This document shows, piece after piece, positions 6,550 to 57,187 of a stretch of DNA of 64,000 nt. The position numbers were made by a program, and so were the translations under genes. The stretch's first letter is position 1, and every line of letters begins with the position of its first letter. The DNA is from an uncultured Candidatus Saccharibacteria bacterium. Lineage in GTDB: Bacteria > Patescibacteriota > Saccharimonadia > Saccharimonadales > CAZWFS01. Location: positions 25,657-89,656 of the forward strand of contig CAZWFS010000002.1 in assembly GCA_964633325.1 (NCBI GenBank), in the 5' to 3' direction. Under the pieces are notes generated by a model. The model was not told the DNA's origin, did no database searches, and saw only the letters and a program-made list of their open reading frames with translations.

Positions 6550-7350
6550 TTAGTTCTTCAAAGCCTCATCCAATGTCTCGTTCACCATCTTGTCTGCCTG
6601 AGAGTTCAGGGCGCGGGGTATGTGGGTGAATTCGATGCGCTTGAAATGGGTGGTGAGCTGCTCTATGGATTCATGTATAGGCCATAGGTCGCGGTTCTTG
6701 ACCTTGTATATTCCCTTCATCTGATTGATTACCAGCAGGCTGTCCAAATAGACATGTACTATTTCTGATTGCAGCTTCAACGCCTCTTCCAGCCCGGCCT
6801 TTAGGGCAAGGTATTCTGCTTGATTGTTGGTCGTGATACCAAGGTAAATCCCGGACTTAATTACAACAACATCATCCATATCCATTAGCACATAGCCACT
6901 GGCCGACGGCCCGGGATTCCCGCGAGAGCCACCATCGGCATAGAGCTTTATCTCTGTCACCTTCGTTGGATAGTTCGCCTCCGGCTGGAAACGCCGGGAA
7001 ATGGCGTAGGGCTCAAAGTGGAAACTTACAATCTTTACTGGGGTATCCGGCCCCACATTTTTGCCATAGAAGCGCCGCATCGTCTCATACATCTCCTTTT
7101 CGGAACCGAATTCCCCGCTCCGCTCTTTGTCCAGAGTATCCAGCTCGCCCAAGCGCTTCATAACTACGCTATCAATGTTGGCCACCCCGAATATCTCCCA
7201 GCTTGCCCGGTCCTTAGGCTCAACCTTATCCACGAACTCTACTTGGTCATTCACAGACAAATCCTTGTCGTCATTAATCCGCCACGTAGTAGTCTTCCTC
7301 CCCTCCCGCACGGCCATCGCCAGCTCATGATCCAATTTAAGCGTTTTCAT
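6550..7350 (-). CDS. ASCH-domain / RNase HI fusion protein
   Basis: The N-terminus is ASCH/PUA-like (LKLDHELAMAVREGRKTTTWRINDD). The C-terminus is RNase H type 1 (YADGGSRGNPGPSASGY...NNQAEYLAL...DSLLVINQ...NSQADKM). AGGAGG RBS present. Confidence 0.8.
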   Translation of the reverse strand: MKTLKLDHELAMAVREGRKTTTWRINDDKDLSVNDQVEFVDKVEPKDRASWEIFGVANIDSVVMKRLGELDTLDKERSGEFGSEKEMYETMRRFYGKNVGPDTPVKIVSFHFEPYAISRRFQPEANYPTKVTEIKLYADGGSRGNPGPSASGYVLMDMDDVVVIKSGIYLGITTNNQAEYLALKAGLEEALKLQSEIVHVYLDSLLVINQMKGIYKVKNRDLWPIHESIEQLTTHFKRIEFTHIPRALNSQADKMVNETLDEALKN

Positions 7351-7390: not shown

Positions 7391-7511
7391 ACGATAGAAT
7401 GTTGGAGCTAGAGGAGTCTGTATGGGGCAGATACCTTATGTAGCTTAAATCAAATTCCTGAGGGGATTCAGGAATTTGAGAGGAGGTAACTTCACCATCA
7501 CACGTTGACGA

Positions 7512-7554
7512 CGGGGTGTGGCGCAGTTGGTAGCGCGTACGGCTGGGGGCCGTG
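7512..7554 (+). pseudogene. truncated 5' copy of tRNA-Pro (positions 1-43)
   Basis: 43 nt identical to 7701-7743 (acceptor 5' strand through the anticodon stem), after which the sequences diverge. Confidence 0.8.
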
Positions 7555-7700: not shown

Positions 7701-7776
7701 CGGGGTGTGGCGCAGTTGGTAGCGCGTACGGCTGGGGGCCGTGAGGTCGCAGGTTCAAGTCCTGTCACCCCGACCA
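7701..7776 (+). tRNA. tRNA-Pro (anticodon GGG), CCA encoded
   Basis: Cloverleaf folded by hand: acceptor cggggtg/caccccg, anticodon loop ctGGGgg, T-arm gcagg-ttcaagt-cctgt. Confidence 0.9.
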
Positions 7777-7937
7777 GGCTAGAACTCATTTTATGTCAAA
7801 AAGCTGAAAACTAGTAGGGCGAGCGGAAGCCCGTGGGCGATACGCGAGCCTGTGCGTGAGCCCCAGCTCCGCCGCCTGTCAGCCGAAGGCTGACCGCTTG
7901 CGGTCAGAGGCGAAGATTGTAAGCTGCCATGGCTAAA
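7773..7937. repeat. left arm of the ~165-nt inverted repeat bounding the PLP-enzyme cassette
   Basis: Reverse complement of 10336-10594. The first ~95 nt are identical by eye, and the arm starts within the tRNA-Pro ACCA. Confidence 0.85.
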
Positions 7938-7974
7938 ACAATAAACCATGAATGCATAGTGTAAAATAACATGC

Positions 7975-9204
7975 ATGAATATTGATGGTTTTTTCTCTAA
8001 GATACGTGATGATGAGAATTTAGATGCCAATTTTTTACACCTTACCTCGAACGAACCATTTATGTCACAAACAGCTCGAACCTTTGCGAACTCTAGGCTA
8101 GCCGATCGTTACTTTATGGGTGGTGGCGAAGATGGGTTTGTCGATCTTGAACCATTCACTACACTTGGACTCCCAGGCGTACAAGCCCTAGTTACAGCAG
8201 CAGAAGAAGCTGCTCAAGAGATGCTGCACGCCGCTTCAGTTAATCTTAGTTGCTTATCTGGTGTTCATGCCATGATGTGCGTACTGTTATCAGTAACTGA
8301 ACCGGGTGATACGGTCATGACAGTTGACCATGATCATGGCGGACACTTTGCAACCGAGAATATAGTAGCCCGTATTGGCCGCAAACGCGTCACGACCTCA
8401 TACAATTACGAAACCCTGTCTTTCGATGCTCAAGCAATAGCGCAGACTTTTAAGGAGAGTGGGGCCAGGGCTTTCTATATGGACGTTTCCTACTATCTGA
8501 ATCCCCATAATTTACGTGAAATCCGTCAGGCATTAGGTGAAGATGTAATTATTATCTATGATGCCAGTCATACTATGGGTCTTATCATGGGCCAGCAGTT
8601 CCAAGCTCCTCTTAAAGAAGGAGCTAATGTAATTTGTGCCAATACCCACAAAACGCTACCTGGTCCGCAAAAAGGAATGATTGCCTTTCGCGATGCTGAT
8701 CTTGCAGAGAGGGCCAATAGAATAATTGAGGACGGCCTCTTTTCTAGTCCACATACCGCTTCAATGATTGCTCTATCCACTACCATCCTCGAAATGAAAG
8801 AATACGGACAAGATTATGCTAAGCAAGTTATTGCTAATTCTAACGCTCTGGCAAGTGCTCTAGCCTCTCTTGGGTATAAAATCCGTAAAGCCAATACCGG
8901 ACGCTACTCAGAAAACCATCAAGTTCATGTACTAACCGAGCATATTGGTGATTATAGGGACCTATACAAGCGTTTGTACCGTAATAATACTAACGTTAAT
9001 TTTGATAGCCCGGATGTCTTCAAGCAAGGTATGTTTATTCGGCTTGGGACACAAGAGCTTACGCGTAGAGGCATGAAAGAGAGCGAGATGGAGCAGGTAG
9101 CTAACTTTCTGCACCGTGGATTACATGATGAAGTTTTTCCAAGTGAAGTGACTGACTTTATTAGACGCTATCAGCAAGCGCATTATTCTTTTGATGCAAT
9201 CTAA
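7975..9204 (+). CDS. serine hydroxymethyltransferase-family PLP enzyme (divergent)
   Basis: SHMT-like PLP-lysine motif NTHKTLPGPQKG and a fold-type I layout. No SD; TAAAAT lies 7 nt upstream of the ATG. Confidence 0.7.
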   Translation: MNIDGFFSKIRDDENLDANFLHLTSNEPFMSQTARTFANSRLADRYFMGGGEDGFVDLEPFTTLGLPGVQALVTAAEEAAQEMLHAASVNLSCLSGVHAMMCVLLSVTEPGDTVMTVDHDHGGHFATENIVARIGRKRVTTSYNYETLSFDAQAIAQTFKESGARAFYMDVSYYLNPHNLREIRQALGEDVIIIYDASHTMGLIMGQQFQAPLKEGANVICANTHKTLPGPQKGMIAFRDADLAERANRIIEDGLFSSPHTASMIALSTTILEMKEYGQDYAKQVIANSNALASALASLGYKIRKANTGRYSENHQVHVLTEHIGDYRDLYKRLYRNNTNVNFDSPDVFKQGMFIRLGTQELTRRGMKESEMEQVANFLHRGLHDEVFPSEVTDFIRRYQQAHYSFDAI

Positions 9205-9208
9205 TTTA

Positions 9209-10246
9209 TTATTTCAATTTGTTGGCGGCTGCGGTAAATGCGTCAACTTCTTCGATGGTCGTGCAATAAGAGGTCATAAATCTATAAAGATTAGTGCTGG
9301 GATCCCAGTCTTCAAAAGCAAACTGATCTCTAAGTTCTTCGGCCCGATCTACCTCCATGACTCCCCAGACGCCATTTGTTTGCACCTCTTCAGTAACATT
9401 AATTGGCGCGTCTTTGATACCCTGTCCTAGCCTACCAGCCATTGCGTTAGAGTGGGCAGCAAGCTGTAGACCAAAATCATCTTGTAACAATACGCTCCAC
9501 TGCGGAGTAATAAGACGTGCTTTTGTAACAACAAACCCCATCTGCTTTATGAGTAAATCTAGGTTTCTACCTACTTCTGGATTGGCAAAGACTACAGCTT
9601 CTCCTATGCCTAAGCCGCCGTTCTTTCCGGCACCCACAGAAATAACGTCTACACCAAGCGTGGTAGTAAAATCAGCCAAACCAATACCTAAACGAGCCGC
9701 CGCATTAAAAATTCTTGCTCCATCCATATGTACCAGTACGTCTTTTTCATGCGCCAGGTCTACTATGTCTCGTATTTCTTCTGGAGTGTATACGGTTCCT
9801 ACTTCGCTAGGCTGAGTTATACTGACTACTCCAGGCCTACCAGTGTGCTTATCGTATGTCCCGCCAAGCATACTTGCAAACATGTCTCTGTCTAGCTTGC
9901 CATGTACTGATTCCAGAGGTCGTATAGGAGATCGTGTAGCGTATTCTATGCCACCGGCTTCAAAGTTGTTAATATGCGACATATCGGTCGCCACAATAAA
10001 AGTGCCTGGGGGCGTCATTCCCCTAAGCGCAGTCACATTTGCTGCTGTGCCCCCACCGCCCACAAAGTAAACTTCACCTGTTGTACCAAATGCTTGTTGT
10101 AATTGTTCTGTGGCTGCAATTGTGAACGCATCGTCACCATAGCTCTCTGCATAGCCTGTTTGGGCTTCTATGATAGCTTGCATTATATTCGGGTGGACTG
10201 GCGCATGATGATCAGCTTCAAACGAAGGTTTTTGTAGTTGGTTCAT
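9209..10246 (-). CDS. ltaE: threonine aldolase-like PLP enzyme
   Basis: Beta-eliminating lyase/threonine aldolase N-terminus (YGDDAFT...VGGGGTAANV). Start chosen at MNQLQKP, with TGcTACAAT 10 nt upstream. Confidence 0.7.
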   Translation of the reverse strand: MNQLQKPSFEADHHAPVHPNIMQAIIEAQTGYAESYGDDAFTIAATEQLQQAFGTTGEVYFVGGGGTAANVTALRGMTPPGTFIVATDMSHINNFEAGGIEYATRSPIRPLESVHGKLDRDMFASMLGGTYDKHTGRPGVVSITQPSEVGTVYTPEEIRDIVDLAHEKDVLVHMDGARIFNAAARLGIGLADFTTTLGVDVISVGAGKNGGLGIGEAVVFANPEVGRNLDLLIKQMGFVVTKARLITPQWSVLLQDDFGLQLAAHSNAMAGRLGQGIKDAPINVTEEVQTNGVWGVMEVDRAEELRDQFAFEDWDPSTNLYRFMTSYCTTIEEVDAFTAAANKLK

Positions 10247-10335
10247 AACAATATAAATTGTAGCACAATATTGATAATATTGCAAGGTTTTACTTTACGC
10301 AACAGATTAGCACTGGGGGTAGACGTCGAGATAAG

Positions 10336-10594
10336 TTTAGCTATGGCAGCTAACAATCTTCGCCTCTGACCGCAAGCGGGCAGCACACCGACAGTCCTGA
10401 CTTTTCTCCTATTTCAATTTTTTTCGGCGGGGCGACAATCCAAAAATGCAAAAGTTAGGACTGGCGGGGCGGTCAGCCTTCGGCTGACAGGCGGCGGGGC
10501 TGGTGCTCCACGCACAGGCTCGCGTATCGCCCACGGGCTTCCGCTCGCCCTACTAGTTTTCAGCTTTTTGACATAAAATGAGTTCTAGCCTGGT
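10336..10594. repeat. right arm of the inverted repeat (carries a 93-nt insertion)
   Basis: Reverse complement of 7773-7937, with extra sequence at 10380-10472. Confidence 0.85.
10380..10472. mobile_element. MITE-like 93-nt insertion inside the right arm
   Basis: Absent from the left arm. Internal inverted repeat cagtcctgactttt / aaaagttaggactg, with GCGG on both flanks. Confidence 0.45.
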
Positions 10595-10641
10595 TGTACA
10601 AGGAGACCAGATTTATAGTTTAAAGAGGCAAAGAAGAATAT

Positions 10642-11031
10642 ATGGTACATAGTGGAGAGATACCCGATTTATCTGGGGATTGGCTTAGTAGGTACTTATA
10701 CTACAGCGACTCAGAGCAAGCGGAACGTGATACAGAACATAGGCTTAGGCTTGTACAAGTTGGAGATGATGTTACAGGCACTAGCCACCCAGATTTGACT
10801 GGCTCAGAACTTGAGCTACATCTCGTTATAAGGGGCAGGAAACTAGATGGTAGATGGCACGAAAAAACCTCCCCCAGAGGTGAGTTTAAAGGCCGAGTAC
10901 TTGAAGGCTTAGTTATGTTTGCTGTTGGAGCCGAGGGCTCACAAATAAATGGAAAACGTCTTATTTACAACCCCTTTCATGGCCGCGTAAACGTGGGCGA
11001 ATGGGTGCTCGACAAAGTGTCTAGCGAGTAA
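10642..11031 (+). CDS. hypothetical protein
   Basis: A 129-aa ORF followed by a strong terminator. Confidence 0.5.
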   Translation: MVHSGEIPDLSGDWLSRYLYYSDSEQAERDTEHRLRLVQVGDDVTGTSHPDLTGSELELHLVIRGRKLDGRWHEKTSPRGEFKGRVLEGLVMFAVGAEGSQINGKRLIYNPFHGRVNVGEWVLDKVSSE

Positions 11032-11042
11032 GTGACAAACGT

Positions 11043-11069
11043 AAAAAGTCCCTGTACGCGGGACTTTTT
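11043..11069 (+). terminator. intrinsic (potentially bidirectional) terminator
   Basis: aaaaagtccc-tgtacgc-gggacttttt. Confidence 0.75.
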
Positions 11070-11356
11070 GCTTAGCTGGGGGTTACCGAGGTGATTAAAC
11101 CTGTCGGTAAACAGGTGGGTGCTCGCACGTGTCGGCCTCGGCCGACCCAAATGTTGAGCTCCCATATGATTGGTAACAGATAATCATATACTCGGCTGCC
11201 CAGCCAAGCCCAATTATATGCTTCTGCGGCAGAATGGTCGAGAGATTTTTATCTTTTTTCCGCACACCCCGAAAACGGAAGCCAGAAATCGTCTTCACAG
11301 GCTTTCGCACTTGATTGCAGTCCGCCTGAGGTGGATGTGCCAAGTGCGAAAGCCTA

Positions 11357-12025
11357 CTAAAGGAAAAAATCTATTAGGCTCTCATTGACCATCACCACCG
11401 CCGGGCCGAGGACCGGGAAAAGTAGGAACATAAATATGATTATTGCCATGAAGCCCATAGACTCTATCTGGTACATGAACCGCTGCAGGGGCTCTGGGGC
11501 AAAGGCGTACAACAGGCGCGAACCATCAAGTGGCGGAAATGGAATCATATTGAAAACAAAGAACGCGATATTCACCTCTAAGAACAGCCTCATGACCGCA
11601 AACACCGTCGTCCCATCGGCCGCGCCAGTCAGCCGAATCAATACCGCGGTAACAGCGGCAAGCGCAAGGTTTGTTAGTGGCCCGGCGATTCCGACAAGAG
11701 CGGCACCATACTCCTCAAACTTAACGCGGGATGGATTGAATGGCACTGGCTTTGCCGCAAAGAACGGCGGGAATCCGGATAATATCAGAACCAGTGGCAA
11801 CAAAACGGTAGTGAAAAGATCTCTGTGCCTAAGCGGATTTAACGTAACCCTTCCCAAATCGCTTGCCGTCGTATCCCCTAGCCAGTGGGCTGTCATGGCA
11901 TGCATTGCCTCATGAAATCCAACGGCCAACAAGATGGAAATTATTAGGAAAAATATTTCGGTGGCCTGTAAACCTGCTGTCATATTACGTATAAGTATAG
12001 CAACTGGTATGGCCTCCTTGACCAT
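11357..12025 (-). CDS. site-2 protease family (M50) membrane metalloprotease
   Basis: HEAMHAMTAHWLGD (HExxH) within a TM helix; polytopic membrane protein. Confidence 0.75.
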   Translation of the reverse strand: MVKEAIPVAILIRNMTAGLQATEIFFLIISILLAVGFHEAMHAMTAHWLGDTTASDLGRVTLNPLRHRDLFTTVLLPLVLILSGFPPFFAAKPVPFNPSRVKFEEYGAALVGIAGPLTNLALAAVTAVLIRLTGAADGTTVFAVMRLFLEVNIAFFVFNMIPFPPLDGSRLLYAFAPEPLQRFMYQIESMGFMAIIIFMFLLFPVLGPAVVMVNESLIDFFL

Positions 12026-18420: not shown

Positions 18421-18497
18421 GGGCGATTAGCTCATTTGGCTAGAGCGCCGCATTGACGTTGCGGAGGTGGCAGGTTCGAATCCTGCATCGCCCACCA
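18421..18497 (+). tRNA. tRNA-Val (anticodon GAC), CCA encoded
   Basis: Acceptor gggcgat/atcgccc, anticodon loop ttGACgt, T-arm gcagg-ttcgaat-cctgc. Confidence 0.9.
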
Positions 18498-28811: not shown

Positions 28812-29237
28812 ATGTATCCGGATCAGCAACAGCCAGGGCCCCCTCCGGGACCAGCAGCACCATATGGGGCACCGCAGCCTCCGGCCGACACGCCAGGGTA
28901 CGGTCCCAATCCCGAGCCTAATGGCGGGCCATCGGTCTACCCGGTAAAAAATCCACCAAAAAGCAAACGTAAACTCATCATAATAGTAGCGTCCGCTCTT
29001 GCTGCGCTTGTGATAATTGTCATTATCGTAGTAGTTGTGGCCGGTGGTAAAAAACCATCAACACCCGCCAAACCAGCGCAAGACCCCAATGAGAACAGCC
29101 AGTCCCAAGGCCCGCAACCTGCCACGTCCTTAGGGGTGGAGCAAATCAATAATTCCATCAGCCAGGACATCAGCGGGCTGAACGATGACCAAGACTATCC
29201 GCCGACCAAACTCGACGACAAAACATTGACGCTATAG
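28812..29237 (+). CDS. proline-rich single-pass membrane protein
   Basis: A P/G-rich N-terminus and one TM (LIIIVASALAALVIIVIIVVVVAG); starts 2 nt after the previous stop. Confidence 0.5.
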   Translation: MYPDQQQPGPPPGPAAPYGAPQPPADTPGYGPNPEPNGGPSVYPVKNPPKSKRKLIIIVASALAALVIIVIIVVVVAGGKKPSTPAKPAQDPNENSQSQGPQPATSLGVEQINNSISQDISGLNDDQDYPPTKLDDKTLTL

Positions 29238-32786: not shown

Positions 32787-33221
32787 CTATTTTTGCTGTA
32801 GTGCTTCAACGAAGTGCTCGACTTCGTTAAGCCTTGAGTCAAAGTAAGGGTCACCGCCGTCATGAGCTACACTTGCTTGCTGAGCACGCAGAAGCCCCAT
32901 TTCTATATAACCAGACATAGTAAGTACAGTTCGAGTGATTTCGGGATTTGCCCTCCAATGTTCCGGGAGTGCTTCGTGACCAGCAGCAAACATTCCAGCG
33001 AGCACTGTAGTAGATTCGCTTCCTATAGTGTTCAAATCTATACATACACCAAGCGCATCTCTCTCTGGATAGTGTGTGCGAGTTATTTCTGCCGCCCATT
33101 CCATATCTGCTGGGCTCTGTTCGCCAGTACGTGTCAAATGGTCGGCAATTACAGCAATTGGGTCATTTTTATACCCAGCTTCACCTACTAATGGGTCTTG
33201 CGAAGGATCTTTATCTGTCAT
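32787..33221 (-). CDS. hypothetical protein (apparently leaderless)
   Basis: Start set at MTDKD. TATGAT lies 6 nt upstream and TTGACT 17 nt further. Confidence 0.5.
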   Translation of the reverse strand: MTDKDPSQDPLVGEAGYKNDPIAVIADHLTRTGEQSPADMEWAAEITRTHYPERDALGVCIDLNTIGSESTTVLAGMFAAGHEALPEHWRANPEITRTVLTMSGYIEMGLLRAQQASVAHDGGDPYFDSRLNEVEHFVEALQQK

Positions 33222-33227
33222 AAGTAC

Positions 33228-33256
33228 ATCATAGCACAATAATGATACTTAGTCAA
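33228..33256 (-). promoter_or_regulatory. promoter TTGACT-17-TATGAT abutting repeat A
   Basis: Read directly; the -10 is 6 nt from the ATG. Confidence 0.5.
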
Positions 33257-33259
33257 TGC

Positions 33260-33385
33260 GGCGGGCTTGACCGGATTAGTGGACTGCGTCCTTTATCCAT
33301 TCCGGCGTGCTCGGTGCGAGCACCTGCGCGCATCCTCATTCCACGAACCGGCGCCCTTGCGGGCTATGCCGGTTCCAAGTCGCAA
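33260..33385. repeat. repeat A: ~125-nt structured repeat beginning with a tRNA-Asp 3'-end copy
   Basis: Roughly 90% identical by eye to 34526-34647. 33260-33277 matches the tRNA-Asp 3' end at 17 of 18 positions. Confidence 0.85.
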
Positions 33386-33486
33386 GCCGTTACTTTACAA
33401 GCATGAAACTATTTTGTAGAAACACAATCAACAAAACTGCAACTTATCTTTTCTAAGCACGTCGTCAGAGCTTAATCAGCTTCTGG

Positions 33487-34332
33487 CTATTCGCCCGCTG
33501 GTTGTGGGAGTTCAAAATCTTGGTAACGTAGGAACATATGGGCTTCGGTTTGGCGAAGTTTTTTTAGACCGTCAGCAGTTTGAGCAAAGAGGTAATTTCT
33601 TTCTGGTTTGGCAAACTGATAGTTTGGCTTGCTGCTTTGGTCTACTTGTAGGGCAGCCAATGACATGGTCAGACTAGCTTTAGCTCCGTCAAAACCAGCT
33701 TCTTTAGGATTAAAGCCAGGTACCCGTTCTGCATAGGTTTCAACTAATCCTAAAGCCGTCCTGAGTTGGTCAGCGCTACCCCATCTATTTAACTTGTATT
33801 GACCGTCAGCTACAAGTAGCCGGATGGTCTTGGTAGCTTTCGCCAGTACAGCAGGATTTTGTAGTTCGCCTGTATCAACTAATCCATCAAGCTCGCCACC
33901 CACATTAAAATCAACTACATCAGGCCCTGCCTGTACACGCTCAGGTTCAGTCGTACCGCGCATATCTAATGTTACGCTGGTCACGACTTTATCAAAGACA
34001 TCTTTTTCTTCTTCTGGCTTGGCTACATTAGGGGCTTCTTCTGCTAAGATTTCCTTAACTTCACCGTAAGAACGGCGTGCTTCTTGCTTTTTTACAGCTT
34101 CCCATACATTAACTCGCTCGGCTTCACGGTGTCCACCAACTGCTTTTACAATTACTTCCCGTTGAGAACTTAAATTAGCAGTAGTTTGTTCCTGTAAGGC
34201 ACCTTCAAGGAACCCAACCTTTTGCTCATAAAGCTTATCGTCAACGGGTGGCGTAACATTACCGCCAAGCACAGAGGGGTCAGTAGCGGGTGCTTCTTGT
34301 GGAGTTGGATTAGGGGGTAGTGGTTCGCTCAT
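33487..34332 (-). CDS. hypothetical acidic protein
   Basis: A 281-aa ORF with a promoter upstream. Confidence 0.55.
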   Translation of the reverse strand: MSEPLPPNPTPQEAPATDPSVLGGNVTPPVDDKLYEQKVGFLEGALQEQTTANLSSQREVIVKAVGGHREAERVNVWEAVKKQEARRSYGEVKEILAEEAPNVAKPEEEKDVFDKVVTSVTLDMRGTTEPERVQAGPDVVDFNVGGELDGLVDTGELQNPAVLAKATKTIRLLVADGQYKLNRWGSADQLRTALGLVETYAERVPGFNPKEAGFDGAKASLTMSLAALQVDQSSKPNYQFAKPERNYLFAQTADGLKKLRQTEAHMFLRYQDFELPQPAGE

Positions 34333-34379
34333 TGCTTTCTTGTTCCTATATTATTTTTGATTTTTATTAACCTACATGC

Positions 34380-34408
34380 ATACTAGCATTAGCTTGATGA
34401 ATTGTCAA
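34380..34408 (-). promoter_or_regulatory. promoter TTGACA-17-TAGTAT
   Basis: Read directly, ~45 nt upstream of the 34332 start. Confidence 0.5.
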
Positions 34409-34525
34409 GTATACGTAATGGTTCAATAGCTTGGAATCATCCGCAAAGGAGTCCAAGCTATGGACATGAGCTGTCCCAAGAACCCCAACCTATAAGTCCC
34501 CGGGCGTAAAAATCTGAGGTGTTAT

Positions 34526-34647
34526 CGGGCTCGAACGGATTAGCGGACTCCGTCCTTTATCCATTCCGGCGTGCTCGGTGCGAGCACCTGCGCGCATCCT
34601 CATTCCACGAACCGGCGCCCATGCGGGCTATGCCGGCTCTAATCGCA
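34526..34647. repeat. repeat B: second copy of the ~125-nt repeat
   Basis: Aligns with 33260-33385. 34526-34541 matches the tRNA-Asp 3' end at 15 of 16 positions. Confidence 0.85.
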
Positions 34648-34738
34648 GACAAGTTTACCCAAAGTAAAAGCCCTATCACTAGGATAGGACATTTACTTTG
34701 GCGGACTGTTGCGGAACAGGTATGGAACTATTTTGTTG

Positions 34739-35239
34739 TTAGCTCTGAGGTGCTTGACTTACAGACGATTGAACGTCAGAAGTTAACTGTTCTTGCATAG
34801 TTCGCATTGCGACAATATCCTCAACTACGGCCTGCATATCTCGCAAACTATACTCCCCACCAGCGAGTGGGTTATCAAAGGACCCTAACTCTTTGGGTTC
34901 CTGCTCTGGAGTATCGGAGTTTATGCTTGTTACGATAATCGTAGCGTCCTCATTGCTCGTGAACTGACCCATATCCAGAACTTCTGCTTTTATATGTACG
35001 CTCATCTCAGGCACAGTAAGCTCTTTAGGAGGACGAGAGCTGAGTGCGGCCATGGGGACGGATTTTGGCGTGGCGTCTTGCGCTAAGGGGTGCGTCAAGA
35101 TTACATTAGCACGGCCTTTGACGGCGTCTGCACGAGCTTTGGTAAGCTGTTTTTTACCCATTACTTCTAAGCTGTCACGCAAATCCTTAAAAGGATCACG
35201 GTCTGGATTTTCACTTGGACTTTCATGTGTTTGAGTCAT
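34739..35239 (-). CDS. hypothetical acidic protein (apparently leaderless)
   Basis: TAACAT lies 6 nt upstream of the ATG. Confidence 0.5.
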   Translation of the reverse strand: MTQTHESPSENPDRDPFKDLRDSLEVMGKKQLTKARADAVKGRANVILTHPLAQDATPKSVPMAALSSRPPKELTVPEMSVHIKAEVLDMGQFTSNEDATIIVTSINSDTPEQEPKELGSFDNPLAGGEYSLRDMQAVVEDIVAMRTMQEQLTSDVQSSVSQAPQS

Positions 35240-35245
35240 GAATAC

Positions 35246-35274
35246 ATGTTATCATAATATGATAATCTTGTCAA
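35246..35274 (-). promoter_or_regulatory. promoter TTGACA-17-TAACAT abutting the tRNA-Asp 3' fragment
   Basis: Read directly. Confidence 0.5.
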
Positions 35275-35276
35275 CT

Positions 35277-35294
35277 TGGCGGGCTCGACCGGAT
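35277..35294 (-). pseudogene. 18-nt exact copy of the tRNA-Asp 3' end (att-like)
   Basis: tggcgggctcgaccggat is identical to 35466-35483. Confidence 0.75.
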
Positions 35295-35465
35295 GTATAG
35301 CTTCTAGCCGGGTTGGCTATTTTACAAGTAAGGAGTGGCCAACTCGGTTTCGGCATATAATCTCGCTGACCGCTCGATTATGACCCGGCTTTCCCAGGTT
35401 CAAATCACGAGTTGAAACTCGTCCAGAAATAAAACAGCCATCCATAAGGACGGCTACTTTATTTC

Positions 35466-37691: not shown

Positions 37692-37727
37692 GCGCCCCTG
37701 TAGTTCAATGGATAAAACAACTCCGTC
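37692..37727 (+). pseudogene. degenerate 5'-half copy of tRNA-Arg
   Basis: gcgcccctgtagttcaatggataaaacaactccgtc compared with the 5' half of the tRNA at 37791. A 14-nt exact core, and no matching 3' half. Confidence 0.55.
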
Positions 37728-37790: not shown

Positions 37791-37866
37791 GGCCCGGTAG
37801 TTCAATGGATAGAACACCACCGTCCTAAGGTGGGTGTTGGGGGTTCGACTCCCTCCCGGGTCACCA
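37791..37866 (+). tRNA. tRNA-Arg (anticodon CCT), CCA encoded
   Basis: Acceptor ggcccgg/ccgggtc, anticodon loop gtCCTaa, T-arm ggggg-ttcgact-ccctc. Confidence 0.85.
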
Positions 37867-38558: not shown

Positions 38559-40769
38559 CTAAAGCACCGGCGGCATACTGCTGATGGCGTCGTATTTGGT
38601 ACCAGTGGTGGTCGAACTGTAGGAGAACGGGGCTGCCAGCCACATCTCTGGGCTGAAGCTGAAGACCTCGGCTATGCTGGGGTCGGTGGCGGTCTCGGTG
38701 GGGATGCTGGCCCGTAGCGAGCCATTGGTACGCAGCAGCTTGATGGACCTGGCTATGAAGGAGCCATTAACCGTCAGGGCGGCCGGGACTGGGTTGCCGT
38801 CGCACTCGCTCATGAAGGTACCGTCCAGGTCAGGCAGGGCTCCGGTGATGCCGGTCCACTTGGCGCAGGTGTAGATATTGCCGCGGGCATCGGCCGCGTC
38901 CGGCTGGGCCACATAGACCCCGTCCAGCTGGGTGACGTCCTTGTCTATATAGATGTTGCCTTTGGCTATTAGGTAGAAGGATGGGATGTTGGGGGCGGTC
39001 CAGGGCCCGGCGGCATAGGTGATGTTGGCGTCGATGAACACGTCGCCGTCCACGAAGACCTTGGTGGGCGTGGCTGCGGCGGGGATGACCGCTCCTGGGT
39101 GGGAGTATGGGCCGGTGATGATGGGTGCCGGGCCGGAAGTGCCGAAGTAGTTTGGGTTCGGGCAGCGGGAGTCCCTGAAGCCACCGCCGTAAGTTGAGCC
39201 GGCATCGGCCGGGTCACCGGCGTTGGCGAAAGTCAGGCCTTTGGGTGGTGTCGGCTCGGTCGGGCTGGCGGGCCCGGCCCGGCCAGCGGCAGAGCTGAAC
39301 TCCTCTATCTTAGACATAGCCTGGGCAGCCAGCTGGGTAGCGGCGCCGGAACCGTCATCCTTGGCAAAGCCCAGGATGCGGCTGCCGGGTGTGGAGGCGG
39401 AACAGCCGACGCTATTGAACTCTGGCAGGCCGGCTAGGACGTCGCCGCCGTAGACACGGAAGTAAGGTTTGTTGAGCGAACTTAATGGATGACTACATGG
39501 CGGTGTTCCGGGAGGAGTATTGCCTCCGCTGATCGCTATGGTCACCGTATAATTACCGGCCGTAGGTAGGGTAAGGCTGTTAATCGTACCATTAGCGGTC
39601 ACCCCAGGTGGTAAGGGATTGGGCGTGAACGCTACGACAGTGGGTCCGTAGACCCCACCAGAGACAGTTACCGTCATAGTGGCGCCATTAAGGGTACCTC
39701 CGCCTAGGTCATTATTAAAACTCACGTTCAGGTTGAACAACTGGCCCGGATCAACCTCCCCTGGGCTAATGCCACTGCACGAGATGTCCGGGGGGGGCGG
39801 GGGCGCGACGCAAGGCCCAATATTGGTCTCGCCTATGAGGTAAGTTCTATTATCAGGTTCGCCATTCCCCTTGACACCATTGGCGTACACCTTGAAGTTG
39901 TGGACACTACTATCCTTATACATCCCGATAGGTATATTGAACTTATGATTCACGGTACGGAATGTACCTTTGCTTACCCCGTCCAAGAACCAAGTGACGT
40001 CGAAGTCAGCATCCGGATCGTCCGCATCGGACACGGTACCATTCAAGGAGTCACATGTAGAGTTCGGGGTTCCGACGGGAGGGTAAACCACCCCTTCCGG
40101 CCTATCGTTAGGGTTATAAAACACATAAAAGGTTACAGTGCCAGAGTCTCTGCAGGGCGGCGAATAAAACTTCCCGTTTTTGTCTATACAGCTCCAGCCT
40201 GGTGGCAAGTCACTAATCAGTTCCATTTCAAGGATAATCTGATTCTGGCCTTCGCGCAGCTTGGAAACATCAATGTCTATAGGCAGGCTATCACCCCGGG
40301 ACTCGTCTTGAGATATGTTGCCTAGGTTGAACTGGTTACCGCTGGGAAAAGATATTACCCCTGTCTCATTCCACACCCCTGAACCTGGCCAAGAGACGGC
40401 GGAATCATGGATAGCGGTCCTGACATTCCGCCAAGCAGATGCAGATGTGGGTGAAACCCAAGCTACGGATATCATATTCGTACTGATCTTGCGGATATCC
40501 CTGAAAAGTGTGTATTCATCCTGTTCAAGATAGACAAAATTTATCAAATCGTCAGGATATCTATTGTGGGTATCCTGAAAGCACTCCTTAAGCCGTTGAG
40601 GCGCATTGAACCCGGAAGCAATAGCGATATCGTTAATGCTAGGAGTGGTTATGGGGGCGGGATTGCAAGGACCTGTATGATTGGCGTAAGCAGGACGCGC
40701 GGTGGAAAACAAGGCTAGAATTGTAAGCCCGGTACTTATAAAAGCTAACGGCCAAATATACCGCTTCAT
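38559..40769 (-). CDS. large secreted protein, T4P-flanking paralog 1 (variable N-terminus, shared C-terminal domain)
   Basis: Signal peptide. The C-terminal ~282 aa are identical to the 899-aa paralog, with a poly-Pro/Cys linker between the regions. Confidence 0.7.
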   Translation of the reverse strand: MKRYIWPLAFISTGLTILALFSTARPAYANHTGPCNPAPITTPSINDIAIASGFNAPQRLKECFQDTHNRYPDDLINFVYLEQDEYTLFRDIRKISTNMISVAWVSPTSASAWRNVRTAIHDSAVSWPGSGVWNETGVISFPSGNQFNLGNISQDESRGDSLPIDIDVSKLREGQNQIILEMELISDLPPGWSCIDKNGKFYSPPCRDSGTVTFYVFYNPNDRPEGVVYPPVGTPNSTCDSLNGTVSDADDPDADFDVTWFLDGVSKGTFRTVNHKFNIPIGMYKDSSVHNFKVYANGVKGNGEPDNRTYLIGETNIGPCVAPPPPPDISCSGISPGEVDPGQLFNLNVSFNNDLGGGTLNGATMTVTVSGGVYGPTVVAFTPNPLPPGVTANGTINSLTLPTAGNYTVTIAISGGNTPPGTPPCSHPLSSLNKPYFRVYGGDVLAGLPEFNSVGCSASTPGSRILGFAKDDGSGAATQLAAQAMSKIEEFSSAAGRAGPASPTEPTPPKGLTFANAGDPADAGSTYGGGFRDSRCPNPNYFGTSGPAPIITGPYSHPGAVIPAAATPTKVFVDGDVFIDANITYAAGPWTAPNIPSFYLIAKGNIYIDKDVTQLDGVYVAQPDAADARGNIYTCAKWTGITGALPDLDGTFMSECDGNPVPAALTVNGSFIARSIKLLRTNGSLRASIPTETATDPSIAEVFSFSPEMWLAAPFSYSSTTTGTKYDAISSMPPVL
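38629..39474. repeat. 846-bp direct repeat, copy 1
   Basis: Offset of 15,926 nt to 54555-55400. All overlapping track ORFs translate identically in both copies. Confidence 0.9.
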
Positions 40770-41225: not shown

Positions 41226-42140
41226 ATGCTATTCGCTAAAGCTAAGACGACCTTCTTGGAATATTTGGAAATCGAACAGAACCGTTCCCAGAAGACAATC
41301 CGCAATTATGATCATTATTTGACCAGGCTTGATGATTTCGCAGGAGACATCGAAGTTAAGGATATAGACGCGGAACTTATTCGCAAATGGCGACTCTGGC
41401 TGAACCGTCTGGGCACCAATGTGTCAGACGAATTGCAGAAGTCTACACAGAACTATCACTTAATTGCTCTGAGAAGTTTTCTTAAATTCTGTGCCAAGCG
41501 TGATATCCCCGCCCTGCCGGCAGATAAAGTGGAGCTGGGACGCACGATCCGAAAGCAGGTCACTTTTCTCACGCCTGAAGAGCTGGAACGATTATTCGCC
41601 CAGTCGGACATATCTACTCTGCCCGGCCTGCGTGACCGTTCTATTTTGGAGCTGTTGTTCTCCTCCGGCTTGCGTGTGTCGGAGCTAGTGGGACTGGACA
41701 AAGATCATGTTAACCTGAAGCGCCGTGAATTCATGGTGCGAGGTAAAGGCCAGAAAGACCGGCCGATCTTCATCAGCGAAAGGACGGCCGACTGGGTGCA
41801 GCGGTATCTGGATCGTCGCACCGATAACGTCAAGCCACTGTTTATCCGCTTCGGGGGCAACAAGCAGGTTGACCTAAGCGGTAACTATCATCGCCTGACT
41901 GCCCGTAGCGTCCAGCGGATGGTAGCCCGCTACGCCCTGATGGCCGGCATCACTAAGCACGTCAGCCCCCATACTCTCAGGCATAGTTTCGCGACGGACC
42001 TACTCATGAACGGTGCGGATTTGAGAAGCGTCCAGGCTATGCTGGGACATGCTAATATTGCGACTACCCAGATATACACTCACGTCACTGACCCGCATCT
42101 GAAATCCGTACATGAACGTTTCCACGGGAAAAATACCTAA
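41226..42140 (+). CDS. xerC: tyrosine recombinase XerC/XerD family
   Basis: C-terminal catalytic motifs HTLRHSFATDLL...LGHANIATTQIYTHV, and an N-terminal SAM-like domain. Confidence 0.9.
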   Translation: MLFAKAKTTFLEYLEIEQNRSQKTIRNYDHYLTRLDDFAGDIEVKDIDAELIRKWRLWLNRLGTNVSDELQKSTQNYHLIALRSFLKFCAKRDIPALPADKVELGRTIRKQVTFLTPEELERLFAQSDISTLPGLRDRSILELLFSSGLRVSELVGLDKDHVNLKRREFMVRGKGQKDRPIFISERTADWVQRYLDRRTDNVKPLFIRFGGNKQVDLSGNYHRLTARSVQRMVARYALMAGITKHVSPHTLRHSFATDLLMNGADLRSVQAMLGHANIATTQIYTHVTDPHLKSVHERFHGKNT

Positions 42141-54487: not shown

Positions 54488-57187
54488 TCATAATACCGGG
54501 GGCATGCTGCTAATAGCGTCGTACTTGACAGCCGTGTCCGTTATAGTCGGAAGAGGGGCTGCCAGCCACATCTCTGGGCTGAAGCTGAAGACCTCGGCTA
54601 TGCTGGGGTCGGTGGCGGTCTCGGTGGGGATGCTGGCCCGTAGCGAGCCATTGGTACGCAGCAGCTTGATGGACCTGGCTATGAAGGAGCCATTAACCGT
54701 CAGGGCGGCCGGGACTGGGTTGCCGTCGCACTCGCTCATGAAGGTACCGTCCAGGTCAGGCAGGGCTCCGGTGATGCCGGTCCACTTGGCGCAGGTGTAG
54801 ATATTGCCGCGGGCATCGGCCGCGTCCGGCTGGGCCACATAGACCCCGTCCAGCTGGGTGACGTCCTTGTCTATATAGATGTTGCCTTTGGCTATTAGGT
54901 AGAAGGATGGGATGTTGGGGGCGGTCCAGGGCCCGGCGGCATAGGTGATGTTGGCGTCGATGAACACGTCGCCGTCCACGAAGACCTTGGTGGGCGTGGC
55001 TGCGGCGGGGATGACCGCTCCTGGGTGGGAGTATGGGCCGGTGATGATGGGTGCCGGGCCGGAAGTGCCGAAGTAGTTTGGGTTCGGGCAGCGGGAGTCC
55101 CTGAAGCCACCGCCGTAAGTTGAGCCGGCATCGGCCGGGTCACCGGCGTTGGCGAAAGTCAGGCCTTTGGGTGGTGTCGGCTCGGTCGGGCTGGCGGGCC
55201 CGGCCCGGCCAGCGGCAGAGCTGAACTCCTCTATCTTAGACATAGCCTGGGCAGCCAGCTGGGTAGCGGCGCCGGAACCGTCATCCTTGGCAAAGCCCAG
55301 GATGCGGCTGCCGGGTGTGGAGGCGGAACAGCCGACGCTATTGAACTCTGGCAGGCCGGCTAGGACGTCGCCGCCGTAGACACGGAAGTAAGGTTTGTTG
55401 GTGATAGTTTCGCAGCTCACGACGGGAGGCGCGGTGCTAGCAAACGTGATACTACCATCCGGATGGACCGTCCCGGAAGTAGGAGTGAGAGTGAGCCGTG
55501 AGCATATCTTGTCTCCGGCGGTGACTACAGGCATCGTGCTTGAGTCAGGCGGGCTAAATACGGTAGTGCCAGGCGGGAAAAGATTGGTCCGGGGGTTCGG
55601 CGGGCTCGGTCCGGTGGGCATAGGAATTTCCGTACCGGGAGGAGCACCTAGAGGTACGCGGAAGTACTTGCGGGTAGTAGTCAGGTTTACCCCAGCCGGT
55701 GGTGCCGGCCCTCCAGGGTCAGGATTAAAGGTAAGTGTCACCCTATTATCGAATATGGCACTTGTAGGATTCTCGGTATCGGGATCCAAAGAGGCCGTGG
55801 TGCTACCACTGGCCGTGAATCCCCAACATATAGGCGCAACGAATTCGGCCGTCGCCGAGTGCCTTGCATAATTCTGGTACCAGACGCGTACCCAGTACTT
55901 TGAGCCACGATTCAGCACCATCGTAGGTGGTTTTCCTAATTGGCCAGTGAAGCTATTTGGTGCCGGGGTCGTGAATACCCCGGCTGGAATTGGTTTGTTC
56001 CAAAACCCGTTGTTGTTCCAATCATTGTCACTATCGAAATCCACGTAATAAGGAGTCGACCCCAGCCCACCATCGGTCCAATTGACATTGGCGGTGACGA
56101 CGCCATTGATACACTGGGTGGTTATAACAGGTGGCGGCGGATTGCATTGCTTATCATAATAAAAGCTGTCGAACGGTACCCACATCTGCACACCGTTATT
56201 ACGGTTGACCTTGTACCATTTCCAGATATATACCTTGTCCGAGCGGGCAGTGAAGCTGATATCCCTATACTGGCCGTTACCCCCTATGTTCGGTGCTGTA
56301 CCGGCATCTATGTTCCGGATCAGGACAGCACCCCCTCCACCCGGGTCTGCTTCGAACAGCTCGAAACGTATCTGGGTGTCGCCAGGAAATTGTGCCCCGT
56401 CCGCTGGCAAGCCGCCGTTACTGGCCGCGTCGGCATCATTCCATCTGAGGAGAGCGGTCTGTGAGCCGGGCGCATTACAAGGTGGCGCAAATTCAAAGGT
56501 AAAATCAATTTCCGTATTGGTTGCATTGACTCGGTCCTGGACGGCGTAGCCGCCGCCGCCCGACCAGTAGCTGGCTGTTCCACAGCATGACTTGGACGCT
56601 ATCTTAAAGCCATTTATGCGTCCTTCTGCTGGTCCGCCAGTCGTCCAAACTGCCCTGGTATAGATGACGTAACGAAAGCCAGCCCCAGTATCGAGAGGAC
56701 CAGATGGAGGTGTAGGTACCCCAAAATCATTCCAGATGTTGTTAGCCAAGCTACTACTATTAATCGTCATAAAGGGCCATGGTTCCGGGGTGCTCCCGTT
56801 GGTTGCGGCATCGCCGAAGTAAAACTCATAGTTGACCGCCCCGGCATCAAAACATCCTGAGGCGCCAGAACCCTGGGAGTCATATTGGTTAGAACCACAG
56901 TTTGAGAAATCGCCATCAAGTATTTGCATCCTAAGAGGAGGTGCAGCAGGAGTATAGTACATCTTTCCCCAGCTTTCTGGGGCGTTTAGGGCTATCCCCG
57001 ATCCTGGCTGGCTAATCTCAAGTGTCACATACCAGTTCGGAGGTCCGCCGCCGGGAGTAGTAAAGCCATTACTGTCGGGAAGTTCGTAGGATACTGCTCC
57101 GACTGACGGAGATTGCCCAAGCAAAAAGAGTACTGAAACAAATGCCATAAAAAACAAACCAACTTTTAACTTACGATGCATTGTCAT
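54488..57187 (-). CDS. large secreted protein, T4P-flanking paralog 2
   Basis: Signal peptide, a unique N-terminal ~600 aa, and the shared C-terminal domain. The start overlaps the upstream stop (TAATG). Confidence 0.7.
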   Translation of the reverse strand: MTMHRKLKVGLFFMAFVSVLFLLGQSPSVGAVSYELPDSNGFTTPGGGPPNWYVTLEISQPGSGIALNAPESWGKMYYTPAAPPLRMQILDGDFSNCGSNQYDSQGSGASGCFDAGAVNYEFYFGDAATNGSTPEPWPFMTINSSSLANNIWNDFGVPTPPSGPLDTGAGFRYVIYTRAVWTTGGPAEGRINGFKIASKSCCGTASYWSGGGGYAVQDRVNATNTEIDFTFEFAPPCNAPGSQTALLRWNDADAASNGGLPADGAQFPGDTQIRFELFEADPGGGGAVLIRNIDAGTAPNIGGNGQYRDISFTARSDKVYIWKWYKVNRNNGVQMWVPFDSFYYDKQCNPPPPVITTQCINGVVTANVNWTDGGLGSTPYYVDFDSDNDWNNNGFWNKPIPAGVFTTPAPNSFTGQLGKPPTMVLNRGSKYWVRVWYQNYARHSATAEFVAPICWGFTASGSTTASLDPDTENPTSAIFDNRVTLTFNPDPGGPAPPAGVNLTTTRKYFRVPLGAPPGTEIPMPTGPSPPNPRTNLFPPGTTVFSPPDSSTMPVVTAGDKICSRLTLTPTSGTVHPDGSITFASTAPPVVSCETITNKPYFRVYGGDVLAGLPEFNSVGCSASTPGSRILGFAKDDGSGAATQLAAQAMSKIEEFSSAAGRAGPASPTEPTPPKGLTFANAGDPADAGSTYGGGFRDSRCPNPNYFGTSGPAPIITGPYSHPGAVIPAAATPTKVFVDGDVFIDANITYAAGPWTAPNIPSFYLIAKGNIYIDKDVTQLDGVYVAQPDAADARGNIYTCAKWTGITGALPDLDGTFMSECDGNPVPAALTVNGSFIARSIKLLRTNGSLRASIPTETATDPSIAEVFSFSPEMWLAAPLPTITDTAVKYDAISSMPPVL
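54555..55400. repeat. 846-bp direct repeat, copy 2
   Basis: See copy 1. Confidence 0.9.

Follow-up and report, generated by a model that had tools for sequence, protein, structure and literature searches.

What is a long inverted repeat doing around two metabolic genes at the end of a tRNA gene? The question is raised by a 64,000-nucleotide (nt) stretch of DNA, here called the window, from a metagenome-assembled genome (MAG) of the Saccharibacteria, a group of the candidate phyla radiation (CPR); positions are counted from its first letter. Two inverted copies of a GC-rich sequence, which we call arms, enclose two convergent genes for pyridoxal 5'-phosphate (PLP) enzymes, and the left arm begins at the very 3' end of tRNA-Pro(GGG). 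The segment bounded by the repeat is the larger part of a block inserted on the 3' side of this tRNA gene. The explanation of the arms that we favor, with about even confidence, is a recent inverted duplication of junction sequence that was made while the islet was being assembled at an insertion hot spot and that has no dedicated function.

The inverted repeat and the genes between its arms

A repeat search, a scan with an 82-nt arm probe, and a MAFFT alignment all recover the inverted repeat that the original prediction had placed here (Table 1). The outer parts of the arms (7773-7858 and 10509-10594) are 100% complementary over 86 nt, so the identical outer stretch is real, and shorter than the ~95 nt first given for it. 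Beyond a 1-nt indel come middle parts of 40 nt at 95% (7858-7897 and 10469-10508), followed by inner parts of 49 nt at 94% (7889-7937 and 10336-10384). In all, ~165 nt are common to both arms, with an overall identity of ~97%. When the left arm is aligned with the reverse complement of the right arm, the two differ by one 1-nt indel, four substitutions, and a block of exactly 93 nt present in the right copy only, much as had been described. Similarity stops 36 nt short of the ATG at 7975 and 90 nt short of the ATG at 10246. With up to three mismatches allowed, the 82-nt probe matches the two arms and no other place in the window, and none of 100 shuffles matched. The first bases of the left arm are the discriminator A and the CCA of tRNA-Pro as called by ARAGORN, in agreement with the predicted start at ACCA. 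Gene conversion need not be invoked for the perfect outer stretch: with five differences spread over ~165 nt, an unbroken match of 86 nt would turn up with a probability of ~0.07.

The core of the arm (7817-7913, 97 nt) has a GC content of 72%, versus 49.6% for the window. It folds into one long imperfect hairpin and two short perfect ones, GTCAGCC-GAA-GGCTGAC and CTGACCGC-TT-GCGGTCAG, both of which had been named in the original prediction, with a minimum free energy (MFE) of -52.3 kcal/mol over 97 nt (z = -3.0). No U-run follows the hairpins. Two substitutions within the predicted long hairpin (C to A and U to C) each disrupt a pair without compensation, a comparison of two copies only, and none of the five differences in ~165 nt is compensatory. 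The arm does not read as coding sequence in six-frame translation, which shows stops in all frames, and the 1-nt indel destroys any common frame. Some finer features did not hold up: a direct repeat CCA(T)GGCTARAAC at both ends of each arm is too weak (4% of random windows attain its score), as is an enrichment of GGCTAGAA (6 observed versus 2.1 expected, 2 of the 6 being the arms). The one GC-rich stretch checked as a further arm-like module (28813-28947) is a Pro/Gly-rich coding region.

The extra 93 nt of the right arm looks like a small insertion of the type known as miniature inverted-repeat transposable elements (MITEs), with terminal inverted repeats CCGCCAGTCCTAACTTTT (10450-10467) and CCGACAGTCCTGACTTTT (10388-10405). 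This element has one copy in the window and is absent from the 94 loci that we fetched (fetched loci and contigs are given below by L numbers). Because it splits the third hairpin of the right arm, that hairpin does not appear to be strongly constrained in the right copy.

The window comes from a MAG contig and the interior of the repeat is atypical in composition, both of which would fit a chimeric or mis-joined assembly as the source of the repeat. In Logan contigs of SRR13766249, an independent assembly, three contig ends lie ~30 nt inside repeats, as k = 31 predicts. L001 starts at window position 7829 and L093 at 10565, both within the identical 86 nt, and L094 ends at 7540, 30 nt into a 44-nt half-copy of tRNA-Pro. 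The inner-left and outer-right junctions recur in this assembly, and its breaks fall exactly at the identical 86 nt, which supports the repeats as real sequence. The arms also differ by five small changes and the 93-nt insertion, unlike artefactual inverted chimeras. Given contigs that break inside the repeats and arms that differ from each other, we find an assembly artefact hardly credible.

Between the arms lie two genes whose stop codons are 4 nt apart, in the convergent arrangement originally described. The first encodes a protein of the serine hydroxymethyltransferase (SHMT) fold, with only a weak match to the Pfam family (PF00464). Among solved structures it comes closest to an archaeal-type SHMT, that of Methanocaldococcus (4bhd/4uqv, 1e-48), and to ObiH, an L-threonine transaldolase (7k34, 1e-42), and among NCBIfam models it scores 276 bits against fluorothreonine transaldolase (TIGR04506) versus 196 bits against SHMT/GlyA (NF000586), both below the cut-off. 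The second encodes an L-threonine-aldolase family enzyme whose closest homologues are 45-48% identical. Pfam and Protein Data Bank matches agree with the families first proposed for the pair and with their glycine-related chemistry; judged by these matches, both enzymes would act on threonine, glycine, and beta-hydroxy-amino acids by aldol-type chemistry. As the original prediction also stated, the genes are richer in AT than their surroundings, with GC contents of 0.437 and 0.451 versus 0.499 +/- 0.032 in window open reading frames (ORFs). GC at third codon positions (GC3; Table 1) is likewise low against 0.541 +/- 0.083 in 52 window ORFs (z about -2.1 for the SHMT-like gene and -2.2 for the aldolase gene). 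By composition, both genes would be acquired, foreign DNA.

The homologues found for the SHMT-like protein come from Saccharibacteria and Patescibacteria, with 60-78% identity. Orthologues at 75-78% identity occur in five other contexts (L002, L004, L005, L008, and an 11-kb contig encoding P0004), with a different neighborhood each time, and RibD_C and NUDIX genes are nearby in several of them. No tRNA or flanking repeat was found near the orthologues in the four loci checked (L002, L004, L005, and L008), and none has an aldolase neighbor in the contexts examined. Nor do aldolase homologues have an SHMT-like neighbor in two fetched low-GC contigs of uncertain origin; a 412-aa gene adjoining the closest aldolase homologue (L091), considered as a partner, is not SHMT-like. 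Among the contexts compared, the pairing thus appears unique to this genome.

The inserted block also holds a third gene, which encodes a 129-amino-acid (aa) protein without a match in Pfam, PHROG, or PADLOC. In a word-indexed search this protein is an orphan, but an exhaustive search yields 191 remote homologues (E <= 1e-3), which are either stand-alone proteins of ~120 aa or the C-terminal domain of proteins of 200-365 aa. None of the seven homologues tested has a Pfam domain, and the protein would represent an undescribed domain family. No meaningful hit came from scanning the islet genes with PHROG and PADLOC, and the three genes of the islet, two for PLP enzymes and one for this uncharacterized domain, include no transposase, integrase, or recombinase.

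Each PLP gene has a promoter-like site between the arm and its ATG, so that the arms lie upstream of the predicted promoters, as first proposed. For the aldolase gene this is a two-hexamer site in unique sequence (Table 1). In front of the SHMT-like gene, a TAAAAT lies 7 nt upstream of the ATG; no good hexamer serves as its -35 partner, and a promoter scan gave no two-hexamer match. Near-leaderless expression of both genes is plausible from this spacing. The original prediction had paired these close hexamers with the missing Shine-Dalgarno sequences. The hexamers are indeed there, but a missing Shine-Dalgarno sequence is nothing special: it is missing in about half of the ORFs checked, several of which have -10-like hexamers just upstream (ORF starts are uncurated), so that it would seem to be a trait of the genome at large, not of the cassette. 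The arm would not form part of the aldolase mRNA, whose predicted promoter lies between arm and gene.

Table 1. Features of the tRNA-Pro(GGG) locus, in window coordinates
Feature	Position	Strand	Remarks
ASCH-RNase H gene	6550-7350	-	Conserved left flank of the hot spot; Pfam ASCH + RNase_H/RVT_3; orthologues anchor 80 related loci
Partial tRNA-Pro copy (exact, 5' 44 nt)	7511-7554	+	189 nt upstream of the intact gene; anticodon hairpin, then T-run
tRNA-Pro(GGG), CCA encoded	7701-7776	+	ARAGORN; Rfam tRNA, 63.3 bits; 3' end is the insertion point
Left arm, 165 nt	7773-7937	+	ACCA; ~40 nt AT-rich; 72%-GC core with three hairpins (7817-7913); ~25 nt
SHMT-fold PLP enzyme, 409 aa	7975-9204	+	PF00464, 95.6 bits; THKTLPGP lysine motif; GC3 0.368
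L-Threonine-aldolase family PLP enzyme, 345 aa	9209-10246	-	PF01212 (Beta_elim_lyase/threonine aldolase), 130.5 bits; Protein Data Bank L-threonine aldolases, 4e-51; GC3 0.357
Promoter-like site TTGCAA-17-TGcTACAAT	10257-10285	-	Ends 10 nt before the aldolase ATG (10246); unique sequence between arm and gene
Right arm, 259 nt	10336-10594	-	Inverted left-arm copy plus 93-nt insertion
MITE-like insertion	10385-10477		84-nt hairpin; ~18-nt terminal inverted repeats (10388-10405 / 10450-10467); 9-nt direct repeat GCTGACCGC / GCTGCCCGC
129-aa gene	10642-11031	+	Within the inserted block, beyond the inverted repeat; absent from all related loci
Ancestral bidirectional terminator AAAAAGTCCC...GGGACTTTTT	11044-11071		Right edge of the insertion; in L020 the same hairpin follows ACCA + 14 nt
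6S-like RNA gene	11069-11209	-	RF00013, 33.9 bits versus gathering score 46.4 (subthreshold); E 1.8e-5
M50 peptidase gene	11357-12025	-	Conserved right flank of the hot spot; Pfam, synteny

Insertion at tRNA 3' ends in Saccharibacteria

Eighty related loci were fetched from Saccharibacteria genomes with the ASCH-RNase H gene as anchor and compared by tblastn with the window proteins. About 60 of them preserve the collinear order ThrRS, MiaA, hyp219, LactB3, M50, gap, ASCH-RNase H, L20, IF3; in the window, too, IF3, L20, ThrRS, and MiaA are encoded, along with RNase P RNA. In most loci the gap between M50 and ASCH-RNase H contains tRNA-Pro(GGG). This gap usually measures 250-700 nt in relatives versus 4,006 nt in the window, and none of the ~60 syntenic loci carries the SHMT-like gene, the aldolase gene, or the 129-aa gene there. 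The case that the original prediction named as refuting it, the two genes at this place in relatives but without arms, therefore does not arise among these loci.

The same comparison delimits the insertion. In relatives whose tRNA has the same direction (L020, L069, L044, L023, and L053), a short A-rich spacer separates the CCA from a terminator hairpin. Beyond the hairpin lies a conserved element (motif ...ACCTGG...CCAGGTGGGT.C.CGCAC...), the counterpart of which in the window is the 6S-like RNA gene. The empty tRNA-Pro site that the original prediction proposed to look for in relatives is present in L020, L069, L044, and L023, as tRNA-ACCA, terminator, and 6S-like element, and the window retains both of the latter. 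The inserted block accordingly runs from directly after the tRNA CCA (7777) to ~11035, before the ancestral terminator (~11044), a length of 3.26 kb. It consists of arm, SHMT/threonine-transaldolase-like gene, threonine-aldolase gene, arm, and 129-aa gene, in this order; the inverted repeat spans its first 2.82 kb, and its right end lies within ~12 nt of the 129-aa gene stop codon. No target-site duplication was found: the flanks (...CACCCCG and TGTACAAGG...) have no direct repeat, and the 4 nt in common are inverted, not direct. No second copy of the tRNA-Pro 3' end with up to three mismatches occurs elsewhere in the window, where ACCA alone recurs, inverted; the 6-mer GACCAG at 10606 is not long enough to qualify as a tRNA-end repeat.

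As for the 6S-like element, it can be aligned between M50 and tRNA-Pro in L012, L020, L057, L026, L061, L022, and L027. Conserved downstream of M50 in many Saccharibacteria loci, it probably represents a divergent 6S RNA that scores too low for the Rfam threshold.

The tRNA-Pro site has received other DNA in other genomes. Extra DNA enlarges the gap 3' of tRNA-Pro in at least 13 loci (0.6-3.8 kb) and 5' of it in two. The cargo ORFs are mutually unrelated and appear, by eye, to include QueA-like, UbiB-kinase-like, aldo-keto-reductase, PIN, glycosyltransferase, and pilin-like proteins. One insert of 3.5 kb (L027) encodes a 556-aa large-serine-recombinase-like ORF and has the tRNA 3' end, as a 23-nt direct repeat, on both sides. 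Another locus (L040) has the tRNA 3' end repeated over 22 nt at a distance of 165 nt, and in a third (L046) the 5' half of the tRNA recurs, inverted, over 40 nt beyond a one-gene cargo; further loci with cargo 3' of tRNA-Pro include L054, L042, L056, L038, L032, L031, and L048. The 3' side of tRNA-Pro(GGG) is a recurrent insertion hot spot in Saccharibacteria.

The loci also vary in another respect. Both tRNA-Pro(GGG) and tRNA-Val(GAC) (18421-18497) keep a constant place between conserved genes and are variable in orientation across Saccharibacteria; tRNA-Pro is on the plus strand in 25 loci and on the minus strand in 20. Between L020 and L057, whose flanks are collinear, the inverted part is only ~78 nt, the tRNA itself. 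On a rough neighbor-joining tree, at least nine flips are needed for tRNA-Pro and at least six for tRNA-Val. A search of the literature on tRNA-gene flipping and on Saccharibacteria tRNA islands or inversions found nothing specific.

Inversion might also concern the islet, if the arms were the crossover sites of a programmed DNA switch that flips the two-gene block. Their perfectly inverted 86 nt are easily long enough to recombine, and the tRNA genes at this and the neighboring locus have flipped repeatedly in Saccharibacteria evolution. No invertase is found among the annotated neighboring genes, however, and the promoter-like sites of both genes lie inside the segment, so that inversion would not switch expression. 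A programmed switch is therefore very unlikely.

A second islet of low GC3 is present in the window at tRNA-Asp (32787-35294, minus strand). The 3' 18-mer of this tRNA (ATCCGGTCGAGCCCGCCA) recurs three times downstream, with 18 of 18 positions at 35294-35277, 15 of 18 at 34540-34523, and 16 of 18 at 33276-33259. A GC-rich direct repeat of 117 nt with 94% identity (33262-33378 and 34526-34642) ends in two of these copies. The first and third 18-mer copies are followed at once by a promoter of the form TTGACx-17-TATGAT, with an ATG 6-11 nt further on. The islet contains three near-leaderless ORFs of low GC3 (166, 281, and 150 aa) that have no match in Pfam, PHROG, or PADLOC, and no integrase was found in it. 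The two islets differ in that the tRNA-Asp repeats are direct with a clear tRNA-end core, whereas the tRNA-Pro repeats are inverted and have only ACCA in common with the tRNA. Since the tRNA-Asp islet stacks self-promoted genes together with duplicated GC-rich modules, it becomes more plausible that the tRNA-Pro arms are junction sequence and not a regulator.

Fragments of tRNA genes occur at several places in the window. The half-copy of tRNA-Pro (Table 1) has a terminator-like look, given by its hairpin and T-run, and a promoter-like TATACT of the intact gene lies within the 145 nt that separate the two. A stretch of the minus strand that follows the tRNA-Asp terminator and precedes the first copy of the 18-mer (35330-35420) contains GATTTGAACC, the reverse complement of a T-arm; by eye it looks like an inverted, degraded tRNA-like fragment, and ARAGORN makes no call there. 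The 5' ~32 nt of tRNA-Arg(CCT) recur, with 88% identity, at 37694-37727, 97 nt upstream of the intact gene (37791-37866), with a hairpin and a TATACAAT box in between.

Elsewhere in the window, the sole recombinase among the ORFs scanned is a Xer-like tyrosine recombinase (Phage_integrase + SAM_1, 304 aa) at 41226-42140, in a type IV pilus cluster. Two segments of 300 nt, 38629-38928 and 54555-54854, form a direct repeat that is 100% identical at a distance of 15.9 kb. They are located at the 3' ends of two large GC-rich ORFs without a Pfam match, 38559-40769 (736 aa) and 54488-57187 (899 aa), which are probably paralogues with recent gene conversion that bracket the type IV pilus cluster.

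Origin and possible roles of the arms

Outside this locus, searches for the arm came back empty. Rfam over the arms returned the tRNA only, at the gathering threshold and at E <= 10. By blastn, the arm matches nothing at E < 0.01 in all fetched loci and nothing in phages or plasmids. It is absent upstream of the SHMT-like orthologues (L002-L010), and L091 and L092 have no similarity to it either. A covariance model of the arm core, run against the window and 79 loci (1.07 Mb), finds the two arms only, the next best hit having an E value of 4.3. The original prediction had also raised the search for the arm in related genomes and metagenomes; exact 22- to 26-mers from three arm parts have no match in viral, genome, and metagenome collections, which lack the source genome and did not return the window's own copy.

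The original prediction offered two readings of the arms, the second of which was a duplicated regulatory module. On this reading the arm would be a cis-acting element that regulates or insulates and was duplicated for common control of both enzymes, for example a leader RNA, an array of operators, or a hairpin barrier that stops read-through arriving from tRNA-Pro and from the M50/6S side. This would fit the like orientation of both copies relative to their genes, the functional link between the two enzymes, the stable hairpin array of the core (MFE and z as above), and the position of each arm between an upstream transcription unit and its gene. The evidence from other genomes goes the other way: the SHMT-like orthologues do without the arm in their five contexts, and Rfam offers no match. 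The copies themselves are also poor matches for a regulator. Their spacing from the ATGs is unequal, the hairpins end without U-runs, and the arm at the aldolase gene precedes the predicted promoter. The right copy, moreover, tolerates an 84-nt insertion in the third hairpin together with two pair-breaking substitutions that are uncompensated. We consider a shared regulatory role improbable.

The other reading was a tRNA-targeted, recombinase-less 2.8-kb cassette with terminal inverted repeats. One part of it stands, as there is acquired DNA at the tRNA-Pro 3' end. The arms could be recombination sites, whether as the inverted termini of a single 2.8-kb unit or as the conserved "heads" of two cassettes with one gene each, acted on at the tRNA-Pro 3' end by a recombinase or transposase supplied in trans. 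The best argument for such a site-specific process is the start of the arm exactly at the tRNA ACCA. The insertion site is a hot spot, the PLP genes are compositionally foreign, and the tRNA-Asp islet, without an integrase inside, likewise has repeated junction modules beside self-promoted single genes; the MITE-like insertion, for its part, would mean that some transposase has acted in this genome. A mobile unit with terminal inverted repeats is, however, not what the boundaries look like, with no target-site duplication, 4 common nt that are inverted, no att-type direct repeat of the tRNA 3' end elsewhere in the window, and a third gene in the insertion outside the repeat. No further arm copy is found in the collections searched or in the 1.07 Mb of related DNA, and the gene pair is unique among the contexts compared. 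Two independent cassettes would also be expected to have tail sequence, for which the 4 nt between the stop codons leave no room, and the islet has no recombinase, the only one seen being the Xer-like gene 30 kb away. We regard arms that act as recombination sites, of one mobile unit or of two cassettes, as fairly unlikely.

The duplication of junction sequence, our favored reading, would account for the locus as follows. A lineage-specific accessory islet would have been acquired between the tRNA-Pro CCA and the terminator with its 6S-like RNA, the repeat-bounded segment forming the larger part of it. The arms would be two copies of a GC-rich, hairpin-rich junction sequence that arose from the recombination that built the islet. 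By one possible route, two units of junction sequence, promoter, and gene were stacked at the tRNA end and one was then inverted; by another, the tRNA-proximal junction was copied in inverted form as the aldolase gene was added. After the duplication, the 84-nt MITE-like element would have entered one copy. Transcription of each PLP gene would start from a promoter of its own, located between the arm and a near-leaderless ATG, and the arms would have no dedicated regulatory role. Their main present effect may be to allow homologous flip-flop inversion of the 2.4-kb interior, which would leave expression unchanged.

Several points weigh against this account. The outer boundary of both arms is exactly at the tRNA ACCA, which would be rare for a random duplication and hints at a site-specific process. 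A function is also conceivable for a GC-rich module of three hairpins (z = -3.1 for the fold of the left-arm RNA) that precedes each of two functionally linked genes in like orientation. The absence of the arm elsewhere counts for little, as the nearest sampled genomes have 55-78% protein identity and the scans of collections need exact 22- to 26-mers. Both the proposed mechanism of inverted duplication and the arms' lack of function are what we infer from the features of the locus.

Relation to known systems and meaning

A small islet linked to a tRNA gene is of a known kind; the long inverted repeat around it is unusual and a single case. Like tRNA-linked genomic islands, the islet lies directly 3' of a tRNA, is missing at this site in relatives, and shows an atypical composition, and the same tRNA has other cargo in other genomes, in one case with a recombinase and tRNA-end direct repeats (L027). 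Unlike them, it is only 3.3 kb in length, has no integrase and no bounding direct repeat of the tRNA 3' end (attL/attR), and is partly bounded by a long inverted repeat instead. In pseudo-compound transposons, genes lie between two inverted copies of a MITE or of the end of an insertion sequence and are mobilized in trans. The likeness is in the passenger genes between two inverted noncoding repeats, with no transposase inside. Here, however, there is no target-site duplication and no further copy of the repeat was found, the 165-nt repeat is far longer than typical terminal repeats, and the arm has no convincing terminal inverted repeats of its own. Invertons, shufflons, and the flip-flop inversion of plastid genomes likewise involve a segment between inverted repeats long enough to recombine; compared with invertons and shufflons, the present segment has no invertase gene and no logic for switching a promoter or a coding end.

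Integron cassettes (attC) resemble the locus in being small units of one or a few genes with a structured, GC-rich module like a recombination site, for which the tRNA-Asp islet offers a tandem counterpart. They differ in that no integron integrase or attI is present here, the module forms several separate hairpins versus one imperfect attC hairpin, the genes have their own promoters, and the two units are mutually inverted. It is a long shot, but integrase-less, self-promoted, near-leaderless single-gene cassettes that may accumulate at Saccharibacteria tRNA 3' ends, delimited by GC-rich structured junction modules, might constitute an integron-like capture system with tRNA ends as attachment sites, of which the tRNA-Pro arms and the 117-nt tRNA-Asp repeats ending in the tRNA 3' 18-mer would be examples. 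A connection may exist between such capture and the in-place flips that tRNA genes have undergone repeatedly across the group.

Taken alone, the islet is of modest significance, one more small accessory islet at a tRNA gene, which adds an enzyme pair of the threonine-to-glycine type to a reduced CPR genome. Potentially more interesting is the associated pattern of duplicated junction modules, partial tRNA copies, cargo on the 3' side of tRNA genes, and tRNA genes that flip between collinear flanks. In these tiny, recombinase-poor genomes, tRNA 3' ends appear to be main sites of gene addition, often with no integrase visible. If the pattern reflects a defined mechanism, it would help to explain how episymbiotic Saccharibacteria gain metabolic genes despite a minimal mobilome.

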